64,000 nt of DNA from Coriobacteriales bacterium (lineage in GTDB: Bacteria; Actinomycetota; Coriobacteriia; Coriobacteriales; QAMH01), in assembly GCA_050943615.1 (NCBI GenBank), contig JBMNPN010000003.1:1058-65057 (forward strand), given 5' to 3'. Below are positions 18,070 to 64,000 of the stretch, piece by piece. Position 1 is the first letter of the stretch. Each line of letters starts with the position of its first letter. A program made the position numbers and the translations under genes. The notes below the pieces were generated by a model, which worked only from the letters and a program-made list of their open reading frames with translations, made no database searches and was not told where the DNA came from.

Positions 18070-18495
18070 TTGAGCAGCGAGTACGCAAGGTCGCGGAATT
18101 AGAATCCGCGCAACGTATTTCGTCATCTGACCAGATTCACGGTCAGACGGCCCATAGCTGTGCGCGAGCTCGTGCGACTCGATTCCCATGCAACGTATTT
18201 CGTCATCTGACCAGATTCACGGTCAGATGCCCCGTGGCTTTGCGCGAATCCGAGATTTCTCAAACTCATGCAATGTATATCGTCATCTGACCGCGATTCT
18301 GGTCAGATGGCCCGTGGCGTTGTTCGAAGGCGAGGGACCGCGAGGTCCGCGCAACGCATAGCGTCATCTGACCGCCAATCTGGTCAGACGGCCCGTGGCT
18401 TTGCGCGAATCCGAGATTTCTCAAACTCATGCAATGTATATCGTCATCTGACCGCGATTCCGGTCAGACGGCTCGTGGCTTTGCACGGAAACGTC
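18070..18495 (+). repeat. Family A tandem repeat array 1 (5 units, 80-81 nt period)
   Basis: Units start at 18110, 18190, 18270, 18351 and 18431. Conserved module: GCAACGTATTTCGTCATCTGACC-N8-GGTCAGATGGCCCGTGGCTTTGCGCGAA. It contains a 9-bp hairpin, CATCTGACC/GGTCAGATG, with a variable 8-nt loop. Confidence 0.85.
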
Positions 18496-26339: not shown

Positions 26340-26655
26340 GCTCGCGCAACGTATTGCGTCATCTGACCGCGTTTCTGGTCAGATGGCCCGTAGCTGTGCG
26401 CGAACTCGTACAACTCAATTCCCATGCAACGTATTTCGTCGTCTGACCGAAGATCTGGTCAGATGGCCCGTGGCTTTGCGCGAATCCGAGATTTTCCGAT
26501 CCCGCGCAACGTATTTGGCCATCTGACCGCGAATCTGGTCAGATGGCCCGTGGCTTTGCGCGAACTCGTACAACTCAATTCCCATGCAACGCATAGCGCC
26601 ATCTGACCGCGAATCCGGTCAGATGGCTCGCAGGCGTGCGCGGCATTTCCGCCAT
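26340..26655 (+). repeat. Family A tandem repeat array 2 (4 units, 80 nt period)
   Basis: Units start at 26346, 26426, 26506 and 26586, beginning 15 nt after the pgi stop. Same hairpin module and same orientation as array 1. Confidence 0.85.
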
Positions 26656-36117: not shown

Positions 36118-36612
36118 GGTGTGGAGTTGACCGCTTGGGTCGCTTCGGTGCAGGTGACACATCGAAACCCGGGACTTGGTCGACCACCTGTGCCACCTCG
36201 ATGCAGCGTGCGCCGAAGCTCGGTAAGTGGTCGAAAGATAGTCGACCACCAGAACGACTTGGATGCAAATTCCGCATCGAGCCCCCTCACGTGGGCGGAT
36301 ACTCGCATCGAACCCAAGGACGTGGTCGACCACCAGGGGCGCTTCGATACACACCGCGATCCGAGACCTTCCACGCGCTCGCGCACTAAGGCCACTTGCG
36401 CGCAGAGTGCACGGAAGCCCTGTTCGTGTGCGCGCACCAGGGGCAGTTCCGCGCGAGAATCTGCGCACGAGCAGGAGTTCGGCACATTTCGGGCCCGATT
36501 CTTCGCAGAAGCCCCGCTCGTGTGCGCACACCAAGATGCCTTCTGCACGCCACGCGCAGAAGCCCGCTACGTGCGCGGCTGCTGAGAACGCTTCGGTACA
36601 GACCGCCGCGTA
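36118..36612 (+). repeat. Family B tandem repeat array 1 (~7 degenerate units of ~50-60 nt)
   Basis: Unit: GCATCGAAACCC-N5-GTGGTCGACCACC-AGG-GGC. Examples lie at 36159-36188 and 36305-36340. The distal units keep the frame but swap the palindromic core to GTGTGCGCGCACC (from 36427) or GTGTGCGCACACC (from 36520). Confidence 0.8.
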
Positions 36613-54078: not shown

Positions 54079-54189
54079 CTTGTCGAGCGGGACAAGCTCC
54101 AATTACAGCTATGCGCTTTCTTGCCGGCTTGCGCGAGAGGCGAAGAGGTGACGAGCCACAGAGACGATGACGGTATCAGGTAGCGCTGT

Positions 54190-54412
54190 CTCAAGGAGAG
54201 CGCTCGACCACCTGAGGCACTTCGGCGCACGGCGCATCGAAACCCTCCAAGTGGTCGACCACCAGGGCCCTCTCGGCGCAATATCCGCATCGAACCCCGG
54301 TACGTGGGCGGATTTTCGCACCGAATTGCATCGAAACCCTTTATGTGGTCGACCACGAAAGCCACTTCGATGTTAGATGCGCCGAAAGCCGCTACGTGGT
54401 CGACTGGGAGTC
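54190..54412 (+). repeat. Family B tandem repeat array 2 (~5 units)
   Basis: Units include GCATCGAAACCCTCCAAGTGGTCGACCACCAGG (from 54233), GCATCGAACCCCGGTACGTGGGCGGAT (from 54287) and GCATCGAAACCCTTTATGTGGTCGACCAC (from 54328). Same orientation and same unit order as array 1. Confidence 0.8.
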
Positions 54413-55348: not shown

Positions 55349-56377
55349 CTACTTGCCGATTAGCGTCTCGGCAATCTGAACGGCATTGAGAGCGGCGCCT
55401 TTCCTGATCTGGTCCATGACGAGCCACAGGGCAAGGCCGTTCTCGACCGTGCGATCGATGCGAACGCGGCCCACGTAGATGTCATCAGTGCCCTGCTTGA
55501 GAGCGGGCATCGGGTAGACGAGGTTCTTGCAGTCGTCTTCGAGCGTGACGCCGGGAGCCGCCGCCAGTACCTCTCTGGCATGATCGGGCGTGATGGGCTC
55601 GTTGAACTCGACATTGAGCGATTCCGCATGGCAGCGCAGCACGGGCACGCGCACGCAGGTCGGCGCGACCTGGATGCTCTCGTCGCCGAAGATCTTCTGG
55701 GTCTCGACGACCATCTTCCACTCTTCCTTGTAGTAGTCGTCCTCGACCGGCACATCGATGTGCGGGATGACGTTGAAGGCGATCTGGTCGCTGAAGGCCT
55801 CGATGGTGAGTTCCTCGTCGTTCAGAAACTGGCGCGTCTGGTTGTAGAGCTCGTTCATAGCCTTCATGCCCGCGCCGCTTGCCGCCTGGTACGTGCTCAC
55901 GACGATGCGCTTGATGCCACCGGCCGCATCGGCGAGCGCCTTGAGCGGTACGACCATCTCGATGGTCGAGCAGTTGGGGTTGGCAATGACGCCGGAGTGC
56001 CAGGCGAGGTCGCCCGGGTTGACCTCGGGGACGACGAGCGGGACGTCGGTGTCCTGCCGAAACGCGCTCGAGTTGTCGATCATGACGCAGCCGGCATCGA
56101 CAACTGCCTGGCGAAACTGCTTAGATGTGGAGGCGCCAGCAGAGAAGAGCGCGATGTCGACGCCCTGGAAGCTGTCATCGGTCATCTCCTCGACCGTGAG
56201 CTCGCCGCCCTTGAAGGGAAGCTTCTTGCCAGCGGAGCGCGCAGACGCAAGCGCCTTGACCTTGGATGCCGGGAAGTCCCTCTGCTCGAGCACCTTGAGC
56301 ATCTCGCGACCGACCACGCCGGTGGCGCCAGCGACGGCAACGACGGGATTTGCGGGAATTTCCTTGTTCCAAGCCAT
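55349..56377 (-). CDS. asd: Aspartate-semialdehyde dehydrogenase
   Basis: Start ATG 56377 (MAWNKEIP). VAVAGATGVVG; active-site NPNCSTI; STYQAASGAG. Confidence 0.92.
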   Translation of the reverse strand: MAWNKEIPANPVVAVAGATGVVGREMLKVLEQRDFPASKVKALASARSAGKKLPFKGGELTVEEMTDDSFQGVDIALFSAGASTSKQFRQAVVDAGCVMIDNSSAFRQDTDVPLVVPEVNPGDLAWHSGVIANPNCSTIEMVVPLKALADAAGGIKRIVVSTYQAASGAGMKAMNELYNQTRQFLNDEELTIEAFSDQIAFNVIPHIDVPVEDDYYKEEWKMVVETQKIFGDESIQVAPTCVRVPVLRCHAESLNVEFNEPITPDHAREVLAAAPGVTLEDDCKNLVYPMPALKQGTDDIYVGRVRIDRTVENGLALWLVMDQIRKGAALNAVQIAETLIGK

Positions 56378-56507
56378 GGCAGATGTCCTTTCGCACAGAT
56401 ACGAAAAAGTCGTGGACTCACAATACCACCGCAACGTCGGAACTCGCACTTTGCCATACGCACCCGTTCACCAGCGCGCGCCAAACGGATGCCAGCGAGC
56501 AGGTGCC

Positions 56508-56711
56508 GCATCCGTTGCGCCCCCGAGGGGCGGCGGGGCTGCGGATGTGCTCAGCGCTCCGCTCCCGTTCGGGAGGGTCCCGCCCGCCGCTGCGGAACTC
56601 GCGCACTTCGTGCGCTCAAACAGTCCTCGCAAGGGCGCGGGCGGGACCCTCCCGAGCAGCTCCGCGAAATCGCCCATCCGCAGCCCCGCCGCCCCTCGGG
56701 GGCTTGCGAGC
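56508..56711. repeat. Family C hairpin element, copy A (MITE-like or invertible)
   Basis: 29-bp terminal inverted repeats GCCCCCGAGGGGCGGCGGGGCTGCGGATG (56519-56547 and 56675-56703), a 127-bp core, TTGC on both sides (56515-56518, 56704-56707), and conserved outer flanks. Confidence 0.8.
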
Positions 56712-56722
56712 TCTCTAATAAG

Positions 56723-56914
56723 TCAGCTCGTCTTTCCGGAGCTCCTATCAGCAATTACTTTATATCGCATCTGGGGAAGCCGTGGAGCACCGCAGTTGGG
56801 GCAGCAATCGTCCGCATCGGTGAGTTCGGCGCCACATAGATAGCAATGCTTGTCATCACCCGGTTCAAATGGCAATTTGCACTTTCCGCACCTCGTACAG
56901 AACATGCAACCCAT
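56723..56914 (-). CDS. Possible small zinc-ribbon protein
   Basis: 63 aa with three CxxC pairs: CTRCGKC, CYLCG, CPNCG. GGGAGG sits 12-13 nt upstream, which is long spacing. No other support. Confidence 0.4.
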   Translation of the reverse strand: MGCMFCTRCGKCKLPFEPGDDKHCYLCGAELTDADDCCPNCGAPRLPQMRYKVIADRSSGKTS

Positions 56915-57035
56915 GCTGCATCCGACCTCCCTCGCACTGCAATAAAGCGCGCCTCAGCGCCCTGGAGTCCAAAGTCCCGGGGCGCTGATGTTCATACCTG
57001 CGCACTTTCGACAGGCTCACATTAAGCGACAGACA

Positions 57036-58382
57036 CTATTGCGCCGCGGATTGCTGTTGCTGCAGGCGCTTTCTTGCCACGCCTCGACGCGGCATCGTGA
57101 AGGCAATTATCGCAGCAATTGCCATGGTGATGCCGACAATCAGGAAGGAGTTGCCAACAATGCCCGTAGCATCGATTACCACGCCTGCAAGCCACGGACC
57201 TAGATAGCGACCGACGATATTGATCGTGCCAACAACGCCGGTGCCCGTCGCCCGAATATCGTCATCATAGTATTCGCCTGCGCAGGTCATGATGACCGTG
57301 ATGACACCCGTACACGCGGTATTGGCAGCAACGAAGAAGTACAGGATGCCGAGATTCATCTCCACGCCCGAGGTTAGATAGAAGTAGTAGCCGAATCCGA
57401 AAATCGCGTTGAGAGCTACCATGAAGGCAATCAGGCTCTTGCGCTCCACGCGGTCGGAGATCTGTCCCAAGATGAGCTCGGTAATGATGCAGCACACGCC
57501 GGCAATCGAGATGGAAAGCGAGGCCTGAGCTAGATCGAACCCGACTGCCTGCACGCTGGCGACATAATACTGGGTCGCAGCCATGTAGCCGATTTGATAG
57601 ATGATGTAGAAAATGCCGAAATGCCAGGTAATGGGCATCTTGAGCACGCGCTTGATTGCGCTCTGGCCGTTGCCCTTTGCAGGCTCGTCACCCTTCTCGG
57701 CAGCAATCGTCGGCTCAGGAGCGGCTTGCACTCCATCGGGAGCACCGTACGGCGCAAGACCAAGTTCCTCGGGTCCCTCTCGGAAAGTCAGCATAATGAG
57801 AAGCGCGATAAGCGCGTAGATGACACCGAAAACGATGTAGGACATGGCCCAGCCAAAACTCGCGATAATCATCGGCGCGACAATGCCGAGTACTAGCGCT
57901 GAAAAGTTAGCGCCAGGGGTGATGAGCGACATGCCGAAGCCACGCTTGTGCGGGGCAAACCAGCGGGAAACGATCTTCGGCAGAATCGCCATGAGCAGGC
58001 CAGCAGTGCCACAACCGCAGATTGCCCAGGTGACGACCGCCGGACCAAGACCGAGCGGTGCGAACAGACCGAAAAGAATAGCGCCTACTGCAGCAAGACC
58101 GCAGGCAGAGGTGATAGCCTTGCGAGTGCCAATCTTATCGGCGAGCATACCCCAGGCAAAGGAAAGGCCCGAGTAGAAAATCATGTAAACCGAAGTGATG
58201 AGCCCAACTTCAGCATAGCTCACTCCGAGGGACTGGCGGATGGATTCGAGCGAAATCGCTGGTAGGCGCTGAGCGCTCAATACGATGAACTGGGTCAGAA
58301 AACCACCAAGGCAGATGATAAAAGCATAGTGAAAACCATGCTTTTTCTTTTGCGGAGATACGTCTTCTACCGTTTGCAACAT
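57036..58382 (-). CDS. MFS transporter
   Basis: 448 aa, 12 TM. AAGGAGG lies 7 nt upstream of the ATG. MFS-type loop motif GMLADKIGTRK. Confidence 0.85.
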   Translation of the reverse strand: MLQTVEDVSPQKKKHGFHYAFIICLGGFLTQFIVLSAQRLPAISLESIRQSLGVSYAEVGLITSVYMIFYSGLSFAWGMLADKIGTRKAITSACGLAAVGAILFGLFAPLGLGPAVVTWAICGCGTAGLLMAILPKIVSRWFAPHKRGFGMSLITPGANFSALVLGIVAPMIIASFGWAMSYIVFGVIYALIALLIMLTFREGPEELGLAPYGAPDGVQAAPEPTIAAEKGDEPAKGNGQSAIKRVLKMPITWHFGIFYIIYQIGYMAATQYYVASVQAVGFDLAQASLSISIAGVCCIITELILGQISDRVERKSLIAFMVALNAIFGFGYYFYLTSGVEMNLGILYFFVAANTACTGVITVIMTCAGEYYDDDIRATGTGVVGTINIVGRYLGPWLAGVVIDATGIVGNSFLIVGITMAIAAIIAFTMPRRGVARKRLQQQQSAAQ

Positions 58383-58489
58383 GGGTGTTCCTCCTTATTT
58401 CTAATGATTTTTCGAACTTGAGAAATTGCTAGCTATCCTCGTGCCCAATAGACACGAGGCCCAAGCCAGCAGAGATTCCGACGGTGCTC

Positions 58490-58942
58490 TCAGACCATGC
58501 GCTTGACCAAGCGCAGCAACCTCTCTCGCCGTTGCTCGTTGCGTTCGAGCTCGTTGTGCTTCTTCTTGGCAAGTGCATCGGCATTGAATTGAGCTCGTGC
58601 CCGTGCCGCTTCTTCGCTCTGCTCGAGCTCTGCGGCAGCGCGCAAGCGTCCCTCATCACTGATGAGCTTTTCTGCACGATGTTTGTGCTCTATCGGAACA
58701 TAGATATCTACGCCATAGTTCTTGTCCTTGCTTTGCGGGAGTGCAAGGCAGGCAACCGGATGATTCATCTTTAGCGTTCCAAGGTCCTTGCCGAAAAGAG
58801 GAATGCCCGCTTCCCTGAACAGGTAGGCCATGCCGTCGTACTGCCATTTCATCTTGAAATTTGTCAGGTATGTCCATGTCATTTGCTCGAACTGTTCAAG
58901 ATCAACGACGGTTGTCCAGCCTTTCTTTTGCTGGGGAAGCAT
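58490..58942 (-). CDS. Hypothetical protein (small alpha/beta N-domain plus charged coiled-coil tail)
   Basis: 150 aa, SD-like GAGAGGAAA upstream. Follows the Fe-S subunit gene after a 29-nt gap. No recognised motif. Confidence 0.5.
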   Translation of the reverse strand: MLPQQKKGWTTVVDLEQFEQMTWTYLTNFKMKWQYDGMAYLFREAGIPLFGKDLGTLKMNHPVACLALPQSKDKNYGVDIYVPIEHKHRAEKLISDEGRLRAAAELEQSEEAARARAQFNADALAKKKHNELERNEQRRERLLRLVKRMV

Positions 58943-58971
58943 GGCATTTCCTCTCTTCGCATTTGAAGGTA

Positions 58972-59304
58972 TTACGGCATAAAGCAGGTGACCTTCGAAG
59001 CGCCCAGCTCGACCATCCGCTTTCCGAGCTCGTCGACGGGGAGAATCTCAATCACCTTTGCCAGGCAGTGCATTTCACATGGAGCGACCTTGCCGGCCTC
59101 GCGTCTACCTGCACATAAATCGCAAAGCCGGGAGGGAACAGGGACGTAGTCCCACTCCCACTGCCCTCCAAGCTTTTTGGGACCGATCTGCTGAACCTGG
59201 ATTCCCCATTCATCAGCAGGTAGTCCCTTTTCCTTGAGACAGGAGACCTCACAAGTTTCGCAGCCTGTGCACAGGCCATAGTTGATGAGCATTCCGTATT
59301 CCAT
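58972..59304 (-). CDS. 2[4Fe-4S] electron-transfer small subunit
   Basis: Start ATG 59304 (MEYGMLINYG), with AGGAGG 6 nt upstream and 10 nt after the large-subunit stop. CTGCETCEVSC plus CDLCAGRREAGKVAPCEMHC. Confidence 0.8.
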   Translation of the reverse strand: MEYGMLINYGLCTGCETCEVSCLKEKGLPADEWGIQVQQIGPKKLGGQWEWDYVPVPSRLCDLCAGRREAGKVAPCEMHCLAKVIEILPVDELGKRMVELGASKVTCFMP

Positions 59305-59314
59305 GACTTCCCTC

Positions 59315-61603
59315 CTAACCAAGGCTCTCGACTTTGCGGATCTTGCAGATGCCGTTCTTGTACGGCGCGCCATATCCCGTGACCGAAACACTCTCGTGCG
59401 GAATCAGGTTGTTCGCATTTGCCTTCCAGACTCCGTAGAGGTTGGGTGCCTCACCGTCCTGCTCGGGGAACCACCAGGCATGCTCGACATGGATGAACTT
59501 GTCGTTAACCTCTTCGGTGAGATGCGCTTTCTGCGTCATCTTTCCAAGCGGGCTTTCCACCTCGACCCAATCGCCTTCTTCGATGCCATACTTCTCGGCA
59601 GTAACAGGATTAATCGTCACGAGTGGCCAGGGGTGCAGGCGTCGCATCGTCGTGCCCTTCTGACGGTGCTCGGAATGGAACATGGAGATATGACGTCCGC
59701 CAGTGGTGTAGTACAGCGGATACTCCTCCGCCAGATCAGGTCGCGAGATATGGCTGTACTCAGGCTCTTCGTAATAAGGAACCGGCTCCTCGCCAAAGCC
59801 CGCCAGAACTGGGGACCACAGCTCGATCTGACCGGACGTAGTGTCGAACCCAGGCTTTCCATCTGGACGGAGCAGCCCCTTCTCGTATTTTCGATACTCA
59901 TAGCCCGACATCTTTGCCGGAACCGCCTTGACATCGTCGAGACCATAGCCATACGTGTCCTTGAGCATCTTGTCGAAGAACTTGTCGGGCGTATCCATGT
60001 CCTTCCAGAGTTCGGGACGCATGCGCTTGCCCATATCGATGAGGATCTCAAGGTCGGACTTGGTGTTGGGATTGTGCACTGCCTTGTTCATGGCACCGAT
60101 GAAGTGCTGGTTGCGACCATAGTTGGGCGTCACGAGTCCCTCATGTTCAGCAAAAGTCGAAAGCGGCAAAACCAAGTCGGCCAACCCCATGATCGTCGGC
60201 GTCATGAAGATGTCCTGGACGACGGTGAACTCGAGGTCTTTCATGGCCTCGTACCATCGTTTGGGCTGGTCGGCCATGCATGCGAGCGGATTGCTTCCGA
60301 TAATCCAGCACATGCGGAGCTTGTAATATTCGGGACGGTCTGCCCATTTCCCCTCGAGCCAGTTCAGAAGCGTGTCACCCTGGACGCCGCCCATTGCTGC
60401 GCCGGCATTGAACAGAGCATACTTGCCATCGAGATCTACGATGTGCTTTGCTGCCATCTCTGGGGAAATGGTGTCGGACATGTCATAGCGCCACTGGCCG
60501 ATGAAGCTCGTCGGTTTGGTGATGGTCACACCGCCCGGCACGTCGATGTATCCGCAAATAGCGACAAGTGCGAGGAAGCATTGAGCTGCCTGAGTCGAGG
60601 CTTTGGACTGGTCAAGTGCTACGCCCCATGTAGCAGTAGAGGGAGCATTCGTCGCAAACGCACGTGCGGCACCAACCAGCTGCTCGGGATCGACCCAAGA
60701 CACCTCCTGGACCTTCTCCGGAGTCCACTCTTCAACAGCTTCGGCAAGTTGATCGAATCCGTAGCACCACTTGTCGACAAACTCGTGATTGTAGAGGTCT
60801 TCTTTGATAACGACGCGCAGAAGCCCCATGCCCACCGCCGCATCGGTGCCAGGCCTGAGTTGCAGATGATACTCTGCATGTGCGCCAAGCCAGGTCAAAC
60901 GCGGGTCAATGGTGATGATCTTTGAGCCGCGCTTCATAAGATCGATAATGCTATGGCCAAAAAACCCGTCTGGACTTGAATAAAGCGGATCCTTGCCCCA
61001 TACGATAATGTACTTGGGCGCCTCCCAACCAGGATGGTCGTAGCGGTCTTCCCAATACTGCGCCCAGTCGATCTCGGGAACCCCAGCACCGAGCAGGTAG
61101 TTGGTAATCGTAGCGCGCGGACCATAGCACGCCTCGCCGGAAAATGCATAGGTGGATGCACCGTTACACGTGTTGCAGACGGCAGGACCATACACGGGGG
61201 CATACAACGTCGACTCACGCCCTGTACCAGTCAGGGTAAAGATAGTCTCCGCACCCCACTTGTCCCAGATTTCGCGAATCTTTTGCTCGAGAAGGTCGTA
61301 TGCCTCGTCCCAACTGATCTTTACCCACGCATCTTGCCCGCGTTTATCGCGGTCACGCTTCATCGGACTTGTCAAACGCTCGGGACTGTACATGATCTCA
61401 TCAAGCGCCAGACAGCGGGGGCACACGCGACCGTTGGTCACGGGATTATCGGGATCCCCTTCTACCTTGATGAGCTTGTTGTCCTTGACGTACAGAATGA
61501 GACCACATCCAACGGGGTGGTCCCCCGGCGGCGACCAGGCGCAAGTGCGCACTTTCATCACGCCATCCTCTTCGGTGACGTAGGGCTTTATTGCCTCAGC
61601 CAT
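59315..61603 (-). CDS. Cytoplasmic molybdopterin (bis-MGD) oxidoreductase, DMSO-reductase superfamily, substrate unknown
   Basis: 762 aa. AGGAGGAGG lies upstream. No twin-arginine signal (N-terminus MAEAIKPYVTEEDG). MopB-like body (ITIDPRLTWLGAHAEYHLQLRPGTDAA, IGSNPL). C-terminal beta-barrel (ITINPVTAEKYGIEEGDWVEVES). Confidence 0.88.
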   Translation of the reverse strand: MAEAIKPYVTEEDGVMKVRTCAWSPPGDHPVGCGLILYVKDNKLIKVEGDPDNPVTNGRVCPRCLALDEIMYSPERLTSPMKRDRDKRGQDAWVKISWDEAYDLLEQKIREIWDKWGAETIFTLTGTGRESTLYAPVYGPAVCNTCNGASTYAFSGEACYGPRATITNYLLGAGVPEIDWAQYWEDRYDHPGWEAPKYIIVWGKDPLYSSPDGFFGHSIIDLMKRGSKIITIDPRLTWLGAHAEYHLQLRPGTDAAVGMGLLRVVIKEDLYNHEFVDKWCYGFDQLAEAVEEWTPEKVQEVSWVDPEQLVGAARAFATNAPSTATWGVALDQSKASTQAAQCFLALVAICGYIDVPGGVTITKPTSFIGQWRYDMSDTISPEMAAKHIVDLDGKYALFNAGAAMGGVQGDTLLNWLEGKWADRPEYYKLRMCWIIGSNPLACMADQPKRWYEAMKDLEFTVVQDIFMTPTIMGLADLVLPLSTFAEHEGLVTPNYGRNQHFIGAMNKAVHNPNTKSDLEILIDMGKRMRPELWKDMDTPDKFFDKMLKDTYGYGLDDVKAVPAKMSGYEYRKYEKGLLRPDGKPGFDTTSGQIELWSPVLAGFGEEPVPYYEEPEYSHISRPDLAEEYPLYYTTGGRHISMFHSEHRQKGTTMRRLHPWPLVTINPVTAEKYGIEEGDWVEVESPLGKMTQKAHLTEEVNDKFIHVEHAWWFPEQDGEAPNLYGVWKANANNLIPHESVSVTGYGAPYKNGICKIRKVESLG

Positions 61604-61784
61604 CTTGATGTCCTCCTCCTTCTCTTTCGCTGCACGAACCTTGCATGCCGCTTACATGCAGGCAGTCAGCGGACATGCGATTAACGTGAAAATATCGAGA
61701 GAAGGAGATACGACAAAGCCACCCCAGGGGTTGTTTTTCACAAACCGAGGGTGCTGATTCGGGTTGTCTTTTCGCGTCAGAGGC

Positions 61785-61799
61785 AACCCTCAGAGGGTT
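61785..61799. promoter_or_regulatory. Perfect palindrome AACCCTC-A-GAGGGTT between the LuxR gene and the molybdoenzyme operon
   Basis: 7-1-7 inverted repeat. More GGGTT/AACC half-sites occur at 61730-61770. Candidate regulator-binding site. Confidence 0.3.
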
Positions 61800-61823
61800 A
61801 TATACAAGTCTGACCTGCGCTTA

Positions 61824-63314
61824 TCAAGAGATGCCCCTGAGAGCGTCATCGATAAGGTCAAGAAGCTCCTCGCGTGAATGAACCTGAAGTTTGGCATAGA
61901 TTCTTCGCACGTGCCCCTTGGACGTGTTATAGGAGATGCCAAGTTCCTCAGCGATAAAAGACGTGCTTCTGCCACGTCCCAGATATGCGAGAACTTCGCG
62001 CTCGCGCGCAGTGAGCCCCGCGCGGCCGGCAAGATTGTCATATGCGAGCTTGCGCCGCTCTTCAACGTTTGTTTCTGGTCTGGATTCGGCTTGAAGCGTC
62101 TCTTCGCGGAACGTCTTTTCGAGGGCAGATTCAATAGTACGTTCATCGAGGACAAGGAACGACATCATAAGCACGAGAACTACCAGAACAATGCTGATCG
62201 TGCTCATAAACGAGAACAGCCCTGGAACGAGCGACGATGCGCAGACGACAATGAGCTGTCCAGCAGTGGTGCCAAGGGCAGATGCACCGCGACCAAAACC
62301 GAAAACACATACAGGACTCATCGTCGTCTGGCCGGCGATATTGGCAAACAGGCACCAGAGCGTGAGCACGAAAATATTGTAAGCACAGTTCACGATGATA
62401 GCCTGCAGGGAGAGAAACTCGGGACCGAGCAAAGGTGCGAGCAGCAGGCCAAGAGCAGCAACGATAATCACGGGATAATAGATTTTACTCAGGTCAAAGC
62501 GCTTCACGCTGTTTACTAGGGCAAAGACGACCACGAGAGCCGCTGAAACAATCAGGGTCACAAACACGCTCATCGCCGCCTGAGCACGCACGACTTCAAT
62601 CTCGCCTTGCAACGTGAACGTCCCCTTTGTAATCCCAACAGCAAGTGAGAAAACGGCGACAAAAAGCACACACCGCAGAAAGAACCCACGAGGAAGAAGC
62701 TTGATGGGGATCGCGTCGGTCTTGTCTATTTCACGGCTATCGACAGGACGCAGGAGCGCAAGCAACATAGCGCAGATGAGAAACAAGGAAATTACAAGAA
62801 CCGAAAGCCACCGATCGAGGCCAACGCAGACAAAGTAAAGCAGATTGGCGAGCATGCCCGAAGCAAAGGTTGTGAAGAAGACGCTCATGGAGTCAAGTGA
62901 GCTATACATATAGCCTATGCGCAGGCAGAGAAACGAAGTACCGACGCCGGTACCAATACCGAGCAGGGCAAAGGTCAAGCCATTTATCGGAAGCCCAGAA
63001 CCACCCATGAGAAAGAAAGTGCACGCAGCAGCAAGCACTGACATGGCAGGCACAAGCGGGCCGCGGCTAATGGTAGGTTCGACGCGCCGCGAAAAAGCAC
63101 CGCAGAGAATGAGGACAATGGTAAGCGGAACACCCGAATACAGATAGAGCAGGTTATTGGCATTTCCCTGCAGCAGTTCCTGCGAAGACGGAACAACTGC
63201 ACTTCCGCCCATCATGAAGAGAATCCAAGCGCTGTAGAAGCCGAGGCTGCAATATTTGAGCCCCGGCCATTGGCTATCGATTCGCTCAAGACTCCTCTTC
63301 CACAGCTCAGCCAC
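61824..63314 (-). CDS. Membrane-embedded LuxR-family transcription regulator
   Basis: GTG start 63314. About 400 aa polytopic domain. C-terminal HTH LTAREREVLAYLGRGRSTSFIAEELGISYNTSKGHVRRIYAKLQV. Confidence 0.8.
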   Translation of the reverse strand: MAELWKRSLERIDSQWPGLKYCSLGFYSAWILFMMGGSAVVPSSQELLQGNANNLLYLYSGVPLTIVLILCGAFSRRVEPTISRGPLVPAMSVLAAACTFFLMGGSGLPINGLTFALLGIGTGVGTSFLCLRIGYMYSSLDSMSVFFTTFASGMLANLLYFVCVGLDRWLSVLVISLFLICAMLLALLRPVDSREIDKTDAIPIKLLPRGFFLRCVLFVAVFSLAVGITKGTFTLQGEIEVVRAQAAMSVFVTLIVSAALVVVFALVNSVKRFDLSKIYYPVIIVAALGLLLAPLLGPEFLSLQAIIVNCAYNIFVLTLWCLFANIAGQTTMSPVCVFGFGRGASALGTTAGQLIVVCASSLVPGLFSFMSTISIVLVVLVLMMSFLVLDERTIESALEKTFREETLQAESRPETNVEERRKLAYDNLAGRAGLTAREREVLAYLGRGRSTSFIAEELGISYNTSKGHVRRIYAKLQVHSREELLDLIDDALRGIS

Positions 63315-63425
63315 GTTGTCTCATACCTCTTCTCTTGTAAGGAATTGCAGCGTCTCGCCTTTCGAAAGTGCAGGTCATTTATATCAATTCGATTGTAGTG
63401 GGTATTCAACCGTTGAAATAGTACA

Positions 63426-63629
63426 GCATCCGTTTGTGCCCCGAGGGGCGGCGGGGATGCGGATGGGCGATTTCGCGGAGCTGCTCGGAAGGGCCCCGCC
63501 CGCGTCCTTGCGAGGACTGTTTGAGCGCACGAAGTGCGCGAGTTCCGCAGCGGCGGGCGGGACCCTCCCGAGCGGGAGCGGAGCGCTGAGCACATCCGCA
63601 TCCCCGCCGCCCCTCGGGGGCTTGCGAGC
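63426..63629. repeat. Family C hairpin element, copy B (core inverted relative to copy A)
   Basis: Terminal inverted repeats at 63438-63465 and 63593-63621. The 127-bp core (63466-63592) equals the reverse complement of the copy A core with 4 mismatches. The outer flanks have the same orientation as in copy A. Confidence 0.8.
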
Positions 63630-63679
63630 CCCTACACGCTCATCGCGCGCTGCATCTGCCCAGAGTTGCTAAAAATCTA

Positions 63680-63709
63680 TCATATGATTGTTATTATACA
63701 GTCATATGA
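63680..63709. promoter_or_regulatory. Paired TCATATGA palindromes upstream of the XRE gene
   Basis: TCATATGA at 63680-63687 and 63702-63709, 22 bp centre to centre, flanking TTATTATACA in a very AT-rich stretch. Confidence 0.35.
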
Positions 63710-63761
63710 GTGTTATTTTTATTCATGCGATTGCAGTTCTCCAATCAATTACGAGGTCTTC

Positions 63762-64000
63762 ATGACGGTAGAAATCACAGCAGACGAGATCAAGGAAACG
63801 CGCGAGCGATACGGCCTGACGCAACGGTCGTTTGCAACGCTTCTCGGCATTGGCGAGGCGAGCATGGTGCGCTACGAAAAGGGGGGCACGCCTAGCAAGG
63901 CTAATGCGAACCTACTCCTTGCCGCAAGAGACCCCCGGTTCATGAAAGGCTGCCTCGAGCGAGAGGGACAGGCTATTCCCGAAGCGCAACGCGCGAAAGC
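63762..64000 (+). CDS. XRE-family HTH protein, N-terminal part (runs off the right edge)
   Basis: Own translation: MTVEITADEIKETRERYGLTQRSFATLLGIGEASMVRYEKGGTPSKANANLLLAARDPRFMK... GAGG lies 7 nt upstream. HTH of the MqsA/antitoxin-associated type. Confidence 0.7.
   Translation, partial: MTVEITADEIKETRERYGLTQRSFATLLGIGEASMVRYEKGGTPSKANANLLLAARDPRFMKGCLEREGQAIPEAQRAK

Follow-up and report, generated by a model that had tools for sequence, protein, structure and literature searches.

Introduction

Among bacterial intergenic repeats with inverted termini, those closest to the element considered here are the Correia elements of Neisseria and the ERIC/IRU sequences of enterobacteria. A related kind of repeat, the REPIN, is a REP doublet that forms one long hairpin from two inverted terminal modules; it is mobilised by RAYT (Y1) transposases and is mainly described in Proteobacteria, not in Coriobacteriia. 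Segments bounded by inverted repeats are also known as invertons, for instance the Mpi-dependent invertible promoters of Bacteroides fragilis and fimS of E. coli, while the attC sites of integrons and CALIN arrays are imperfect hairpins of one polarity, which separate gene modules including toxin-antitoxin pairs. Finally, template switching between inverted-repeat arms has been documented to homogenise the arms as well as to invert the spacer between them, the published spacer inversions comprising a few bases (PMC8604942) as compared with the 121-127 nt at issue here.

The present analysis concerns a stretch of 64 kb, hereafter the window, of the metagenome-assembled genome of an uncultured member of the Coriobacteriales (window proteins MGI6031984-92, on a contig of 66,307 bp). 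An earlier note on this DNA had described two copies of a rod-like hairpin element of ~185 bp, which share their flanks but carry inverted cores, and had offered two explanations, a DNA-inversion switch acting across the terminal repeats or a MITE inserted in both orientations at a specific site. As outlined below, the reorientation of the core between arms and flanks that stay fixed is most likely the result of passive recombination or of copying errors, and not of a regulated switch.

Architecture and predicted fold of the element

Copy A occupies positions 56519..56703 (185 bp, 77% GC), its core being termed forward here, whereas copy B at 63438..63621 (184 bp) corresponds at ~97% to the reverse complement of A; neither copy nor any of its repeats is assigned to a strand. 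Both copies were found at these positions by direct reading of the sequence. Alignment of B with the reverse complement of A yields six mismatches and one 1-nt indel, while same-strand alignment is poor. Four of the six mismatches fall within the 127-bp core, which is the count that the earlier note had reached by hand, and the other two represent a single arm position seen in both arms, which reads C/G in A and A/T in B. The element as a whole has a GC content of 76%, its core one of 75%.

The terminal arms of copy A, 56519..56550 on the left and 56672..56703 on the right, are perfectly complementary over 29 nt and at 97% over 32 nt, in agreement with the terminal inverted repeats of 28/29 bp noted before. 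Those of copy B lie at 63439..63468 and 63590..63619 and are complementary at 97% over 30 nt. In the window the right arm of B reads CATCCCCGCC, whereas other assemblies of the same organism as well as a related strain have CAGCCACGCC instead. An 18-nt motif of the arms occurs four times in the 64 kb, with 0.17 occurrences expected. Inside the arms of A, an inner inverted repeat (56569-56587 and 56637-56655, spanning 56569..56655) is perfect over 19 nt, slightly longer than the 17 bp reported earlier, and encloses the central GCGCAC-TTC-GTGCGC, which was located at 56601-56615. The inner inverted repeat of B matches at 90% over 21 nt.

In line with the rod-like shape that had been proposed, the element is predicted to fold as a nearly continuous rod, at -92 kcal/mol for DNA and -166 kcal/mol for RNA. 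The corresponding z-scores are -11 and -11.6, and none of 200 shuffled sequences was as stable. In addition, each terminus of the element can fold on itself (GCCCC-CGA-GGGGC). A function as intrinsic terminator was considered and rejected, as no T-run follows the hairpin on either strand. Searches against Rfam returned only tRNAs above the gathering threshold in the window, and the matches of the element itself were far below threshold and confined to models of eukaryotic miRNA hairpins.

Genomic setting

Most of the window represents core genome with 60.5% GC, including dnaK-grpE-dnaJ-clpB, glmU, prs, pth, ask and the genes of fumarate reductase. The last gene of this region is asd, encoding aspartate-semialdehyde dehydrogenase (55349..56377, minus strand). 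Copy A is situated upstream of asd, at a distance of 142 nt, and downstream of a gene for an MFS transporter, at a distance of 333 nt, and it is exactly at copy A that the GC content drops from 60.5% to 53-54% (1-56518 versus 56704-64000). This coincidence suggests that a horizontally acquired island begins at the element. Between A and B lies a block of five genes on the minus strand (57036..63314, 54% GC), which encode the MFS transporter, a protein of 150 aa, an Fe-S protein of 110 aa, a molybdopterin oxidoreductase and a membrane-bound LuxR regulator. Copy B separates the LuxR gene from the divergent gene of a pezA-like antitoxin, which starts at 63762 on the plus strand; pezA and pezT run past the window end at 64000 and are followed by a third copy of the element, C. 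Thus, copies B and C enclose a toxin-antitoxin pair of the pezA/pezT (epsilon/zeta) type (2895-4471 of contig L128). Gene callers have fused the antitoxin with an ORF whose start lies within copy B, which yields a 'PezA' of 267 aa.

Pfam scans of ~68 ORFs on both strands revealed no recombinase or transposase gene in the 64-kb window, as the earlier note had stated. Outside the window, the five genes are known as a unit: LuxR regulator, Mo-oxidoreductase, Fe-S protein, small ORF and MFS transporter form a conserved arrangement, and the cluster of the oxidoreductase comprises 395 members. In another species of the Coriobacteriales the five-gene module shows 73-78% nucleotide identity and resides in a different neighbourhood, where it is devoid of hairpins. 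Ten loci with the module in this other species (L134-L143) contained neither the element nor alignable boundaries; in one of them (L143) a transposase gene of the IS110 family takes the place of the MFS gene, and another (L137) has acquired an rve integrase gene downstream. Likewise, the orthologous asd loci of three relatives, whose proteins are 86-89% identical, carry no element and no conserved DNA upstream of asd.

The window also harbours repeats of other kinds. Two tandem arrays of an 80-nt unit at 18110-18484 and 26346-26627 (4.7 and 3.5 copies, 75-78% matches) are intergenic and ~8 kb apart, and each of their units contains a hairpin, CATCTGACC-N8-GGTCAGATG. A further intergenic family with a unit of ~50 nt, which includes GTCGACCAC, is present at 36159-36463 and 54186-54382. 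Analogous arrays of GTCGCCGCGACCGAAACCTG occur upstream of asd in a relative (L126, 9400-10000), and intergenic arrays of this ~50-nt type may be common in the lineage.

Asymmetric junctions shared by the copies

On the plus strand, copy A is preceded by GCATCCG and TTGC (56508..56518) and followed by TTGC and GAGC (56704..56711), so that the TTGC at 56515-56518 recurs after the element as a perfect direct repeat. Copy B is preceded by GCATCCGT and TTGT (63426..63437), while its right flank at 63622..63629 reads TTGCGAGC, or TTACGAGC in a related strain. TTGCGAGC is found directly to the right of A as well as of B. The motif GCATCCGTT occurs three times in the 64-kb window, each time beside an element: two occurrences lie directly to the left of A and B, at an equal and ungapped distance from the arm, and the third is an inverted partner to the left of that of A. 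This partner, AACGGATGC at 56484-56492, is separated by 15-16 nt from GCATCCGTT, and the segment 56484-56516 just upstream of asd therefore resembles a small hairpin or a dimer-operator-like site, for which there is no counterpart at B.

For random 20-mers of the window, the probability that a 9-mer is shared at matching offset amounts to ~3e-4, and that of an identical first 8-mer to ~7e-5; together with the ungapped alignment, these estimates confirm the flank identity that had been read by eye. The claim that both copies share flanks of the same orientation can be upheld insofar as the resemblance is real and asymmetric, but it needs refinement on the left side, where the ungapped junctions of A and B differ in a block of 4 nt, GCGC versus TGTG, between GCATCCGTT and CCCCGAGG. 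Because of this block the direct repeat at the ends is perfect only at A (TTGC/TTGC), whereas at B it matches in three of four positions (TTGT/TTGC). The same end tetranucleotide is present at all copies and may belong to a more extended conserved junction, the consensus of which is GCATYCG followed by a T/G-rich spacer on the left and TTRCGAGCYC-CTA on the right.

Divergence is greater in the flanks, with 4 differences in 17 nt, than in the hairpin, with 6 in 185 (P ~0.002). This is to be expected if homogenisation of the copies stops in the arms, and it would also be expected of a target preference. Hence, the flank motifs may constitute the outer part of an original repeat unit that is beyond the reach of conversion, or else the preferred target of the element. 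A derivation of the left flanks from an older element copy was rejected, as their local alignments scored no higher than those of shuffled sequences (p > 0.3 for all left flanks).

A third copy and a related strain

The ORF with its start in copy B led, via its protein cluster, to short contigs of the same organism (L128, L129 and L133), which extend beyond the window through pezA and pezT into copy C. This copy starts at the equivalent of ~65124, that is ~1.1 kb past the window and 17 nt after the stop codon of pezT. The short-read contigs stop within it, and C was read from its left end and core. C has the same orientation as B and a core identical to that of B, and its left flank motif is of the same polarity (...ACACGCATTCGTGT|GCTCTCGAGGGG). 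Altogether, three copies that are 95-100% alike are found within ~9 kb, surrounded by otherwise unrelated DNA.

A related strain is represented by contig L132 (Logan, SRR11702762), which is 93.3% identical to the window's organism at the DNA level over pezAT, starts inside the copy at site B (termed B') and ends inside the copy at site C (C'). As copies are present at both sites in both strains, sites B and C were either occupied already in the common ancestor or hit independently in each strain. The orientation of C' is that of C. On the contrary, B' is oriented opposite to B, its core reading GCGCACTTCGTGCGCTCAAACAGTCC...GAAATCGCCC toward pezA as in copy A; B' and C' differ in sequence and are opposite in orientation. 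The right flank of B' is orthologous to that of B (TTACGAGCTCCTACACGCTCATCGCGCGC...) and its right arm carries CAGCCACGCC, a CCAC variant that in the window's organism is restricted to the right arm of B (L128, L129). Since this single-nucleotide variant of the arm and the orthologous flank are both retained in B', the outer right arm and the flank at site B appear to have stayed in place while the interior changed its orientation, as judged from one arm SNP plus the flank. The idea of an inversion across the terminal repeats is thus supported as far as the event is concerned, with opposite cores at site B and right flank and CCAC variant preserved, though not as far as a switch is concerned.

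Copies B in the window and in the same-organism contigs differ in yet another respect. L128 deviates from the window at two positions out of 3361 and L129 at two out of 506, and these are the same two bases, 3 nt apart, in the right arm of B. In the version of the window this arm complements the left arm without any mismatch. A clustered change of two bases that perfects a palindrome is a signature of templated correction.

Orientation at individual loci and the question of a programmed switch

A difference in orientation, be it among paralogous copies or, at one and the same locus, among strains, would also be compatible with a programmed inverton, in which an invertase encoded elsewhere flips the 121-127-bp core at several loci and thereby switches an orientation-dependent function. 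Moreover, inverted repeats of ~30 nt around a segment of ~125 bp, found at several loci with the same repeats, constitute the architecture of an inverton, and copies A and B lie 142 and 124 nt upstream of genes. Such a system is nevertheless very improbable in our view. No sigma-70-like promoter or other promoter-like site was detected in or next to copies A and B on either strand, where the core has ~75% GC, and copy C is located 17 nt behind a stop codon instead of upstream of a gene. In addition, the whole element is a rod, and both orientations are accordingly near-equivalent hairpins. The 64 kb encode no recombinase, and the identity of the B core with that of C argues for conversion rather than flipping.

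Furthermore, each locus was found in a single orientation in every assembly, with the qualification that these are consensus contigs, in which a minority orientation would not show. In samples JGI 3300064082, 3300060803 and 3300061563 and in Logan runs SRR31066036 and SRR31066337, all consensus contigs agree with the window: copy A in L118 and L131, copy B in L118, L119, L128 and L129, and copy C in L128, L129 and L133. On these grounds (single orientation per locus in consensus contigs, no promoter-like site, no recombinase in 64 kb), the proposal of a DNA-inversion switch is not supported.

The ends of contigs were also considered as evidence of mixed alleles and discarded as such, since most of them are explained by the sharing of 31-mers between copies, two being ambiguous. 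The first bases of contig L133 (Logan) are the TTGC that adjoins copy B on its right (window position 63622), and contigs L119 and L120, which stem from different runs, both stop at base 56689, which is 15 nt inside the right arm of A. These ends at 63622 and 56689, which 31-mer sharing does not explain, could reflect strain variants, an allele with an empty site or loss of coverage at the hairpin. In general, the repeat breaks short-read assemblies of the source organism at predictable points.

Probable passive reorientation of the core

The explanation we favour, and hold with middling confidence, is that the element is a GC-rich quasi-palindromic repeat of the MITE/REPIN kind, in which template switching or recombination mediated by the arms, together with gene conversion, leads to concerted evolution of the copies. 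According to this model the element would be a non-coding repeat, at least three copies of which occupy the junctions of gene blocks in the low-GC island. Its arms of 29-32 nt, being mutually complementary and common to all copies, would permit switching or recombination between arms, while gene conversion between neighbouring copies could rewrite the region between the arms in either orientation. The outer ends of the arms and the flanks would remain fixed, which would generate the observed pattern of an inverted core between the same flanks, and the same process would keep the arms perfectly complementary. Concerning site B, conversion that is primed in the arms and uses C as its template would replace the core with that of C, including its orientation, and leave the outer right arm of B untouched; RecA-type recombination between the 29-32-nt arms would be an alternative route.

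Concerted evolution is indicated by the cores of B and C, which are identical even at the sites where both differ from A, whereas B' and C' differ from each other in the related strain. Given that the B core is identical to that of its neighbour C, the change at B may represent gene conversion. An inversion between A and B by replicative transposition was considered in addition and rejected, as the reverse-complement target duplications that it predicts are absent. What we infer is the molecular route, be it template switching, recombination or conversion, together with the lack of regulation and the initial spread of the copies. Moreover, template switching and conversion leave the origin of three copies with similar asymmetric flanks unexplained.

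If passive reorientation is correct, the locus provides a natural example of a segment that is bounded by inverted repeats and reorients at a fixed site in the absence of a dedicated switch, and paralogous copies appear to pass their orientation among themselves. This bears on surveys of invertons, where phase variation is inferred from orientation differences of repeat-flanked segments.

Possible insertion as a mobilised element

The other explanation put forward earlier attributes the two orientations to the outcome of insertion: a MITE mobilised in trans would prefer a site of approximately GCATCCG/TTGC/GAGC, duplicate TTGC and insert either way round. Terminal inverted arms of 29-32 nt, the direct repeat TTGC, which is perfect around A and matches in three of four positions around B, and the presence of three copies that are 95-100% alike within DNA that is otherwise unrelated are in keeping with such an element, as is the stronger divergence of the flanks mentioned above. 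Symmetric arms would also be expected to result in random orientation even at an asymmetric target. We nonetheless regard this account as rather unlikely. The symmetric transpososome of DDE enzymes would not usually have a conserved, asymmetric target as long as ~20 nt, and the ~20-nt junction is asymmetric and of the same polarity at three copies. Besides, the orientation difference at site B with its retained arm SNP would call for two independent insertions. Target-specific insertion in both orientations may have taken place, but it is no longer needed in order to explain opposite cores between identical flanks.

Neither an empty site nor further copies came to light. The reconstructed empty site GCATCCGTTGCGAGC had no match in the window beyond chance level, and both strains carry a copy at B as well as at C. 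Apart from A and B, the 64-kb window contains no element. In the genome collection, the 18-nt arm returned at least 117 matches, which are attributable to chance in GC-rich genomes and among which those listed include no real copy; the metagenome collection gave no match to a 22-nt arm pattern and none to the 20-nt conserved centre, and arm and centre patterns had no true match in the viral, plasmid and phage collections. A six-frame peptide search for ORFs across other copies retrieved only the window's own ORF at copy B, and an nhmmer profile search of 143 loci only the copies already described. Similarly, no insertion sequence or autonomous partner with the same termini was present in the window or in the collections searched.

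A possible site for the capture of gene modules

The polarity of the flank motifs, which is the same at all three copies, together with the discrete modules that the copies bracket, namely the five-gene operon and then the pezAT toxin-antitoxin pair, brings to mind a third possibility. Left motif, hairpin and right motif might jointly form a site that captures circular gene modules in analogy to integron attC or Xer/pdif, in other words a folded-DNA recombination site of a module-capture array of Coriobacteriales whose recombinase is encoded elsewhere. The position of copy A exactly at the transition from the 60.5% GC core genome to the 54% GC island and the fact that another species has the five-gene module as a unit, devoid of hairpins and amid other neighbours, would fit this scheme, and a circle with one unit that integrates into a resident unit would produce exactly such an array of one polarity.

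Several observations nevertheless make both the capture of circles and the existence of such an array improbable. The window encodes no integrase or other recombinase, and the ends depart from the R'' (RYYYAAC) and R' (GTTRRRY) consensus of attC, reading ..CCGTTGC|G.. and ..C|TTGCGAG.., that is as direct and not as inverted repeats. The outer 29 bp pair perfectly and lack bulges, and thus the extrahelical bases that attC requires. On top of that, the module content is the same in both strains, only three sites have been seen, and any intergenic insertion would be located 'between modules'. If the idea were true, the system would resemble integrons or pdif in function though with an unrelated site, and the orientation of the core would be irrelevant. 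As regards the spread of the element, an old unit of ~215 bp with a homogenised hairpin or a module-capture site would fit the junction equally well.

Comparison with known systems

Integron attC sites and CALIN arrays share with the present copies the arrangement of similar imperfect hairpins in one polarity, which separate modules including toxin-antitoxin pairs. They differ in the R''/R' consensus, in flanks that are not direct repeats, in extrahelical bases and in the presence of an integrase, and one module here amounts to 6.7 kb. Invertons such as the Mpi-dependent promoters of B. fragilis and fimS of E. coli are similar with respect to a segment of ~125 bp with inverted repeats of ~30 nt, which bound the segment in A and B, and with respect to several loci that share repeats and differ in orientation between loci and strains. 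Unlike invertons, however, the element contains no promoter or other orientation-dependent function, no site-specific invertase is encoded among the window's ~68 ORFs, no mixed orientation was detected in the consensus contigs, and the invertible part is itself palindromic, so that flipping changes little. REPINs are comparable in that a pair of inverted terminal modules yields a single long hairpin, the termini can self-fold and the repeat is non-autonomous, whereas the present element has about twice the usual length, lacks a head of the GTAG type and is not accompanied by a RAYT (Y1 transposase) gene in the window. Inverton, attC and REPIN memberships are each at variance with at least one feature examined.

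Quasi-palindrome template switching as in the Ripley model (PMC8604942) is paralleled by the two-base correction of an arm and by inversion between perfect arms, although 121-127 nt are inverted here in place of a few bases; for the change at site B, gene conversion between copies is an equally good route. Of the features expected of a MITE, four are present, namely the arms, with 29 nt of terminal inverted repeat perfect in A, the small size, the lack of coding capacity and the perfect TTGC repeat at A, while no empty site, dispersed copy or autonomous partner turned up in the window and the collections searched, and MITE membership is tentative at most. As in Correia elements and ERIC/IRU, the repeat is ~100-200 bp long, non-coding and intergenic, has terminal inverted repeats, forms a rod-like hairpin when single-stranded or transcribed, occurs in both orientations and, in one copy or more, is bounded by a short direct repeat. 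In contrast to these families it has 76% GC, is known from only three clustered copies and no cognate insertion sequence, carries the same ~20-nt asymmetric flank at every copy and changes its orientation at a fixed locus. Taken together, we read the element as belonging in kind with the palindromic intergenic repeats of bacteria (Correia, ERIC, REPIN-like) and as a new family among them, which adds a previously undescribed repeat to those of gut-type Coriobacteriales and marks the boundary as well as the internal junctions of what is suggested to be a horizontally acquired island.
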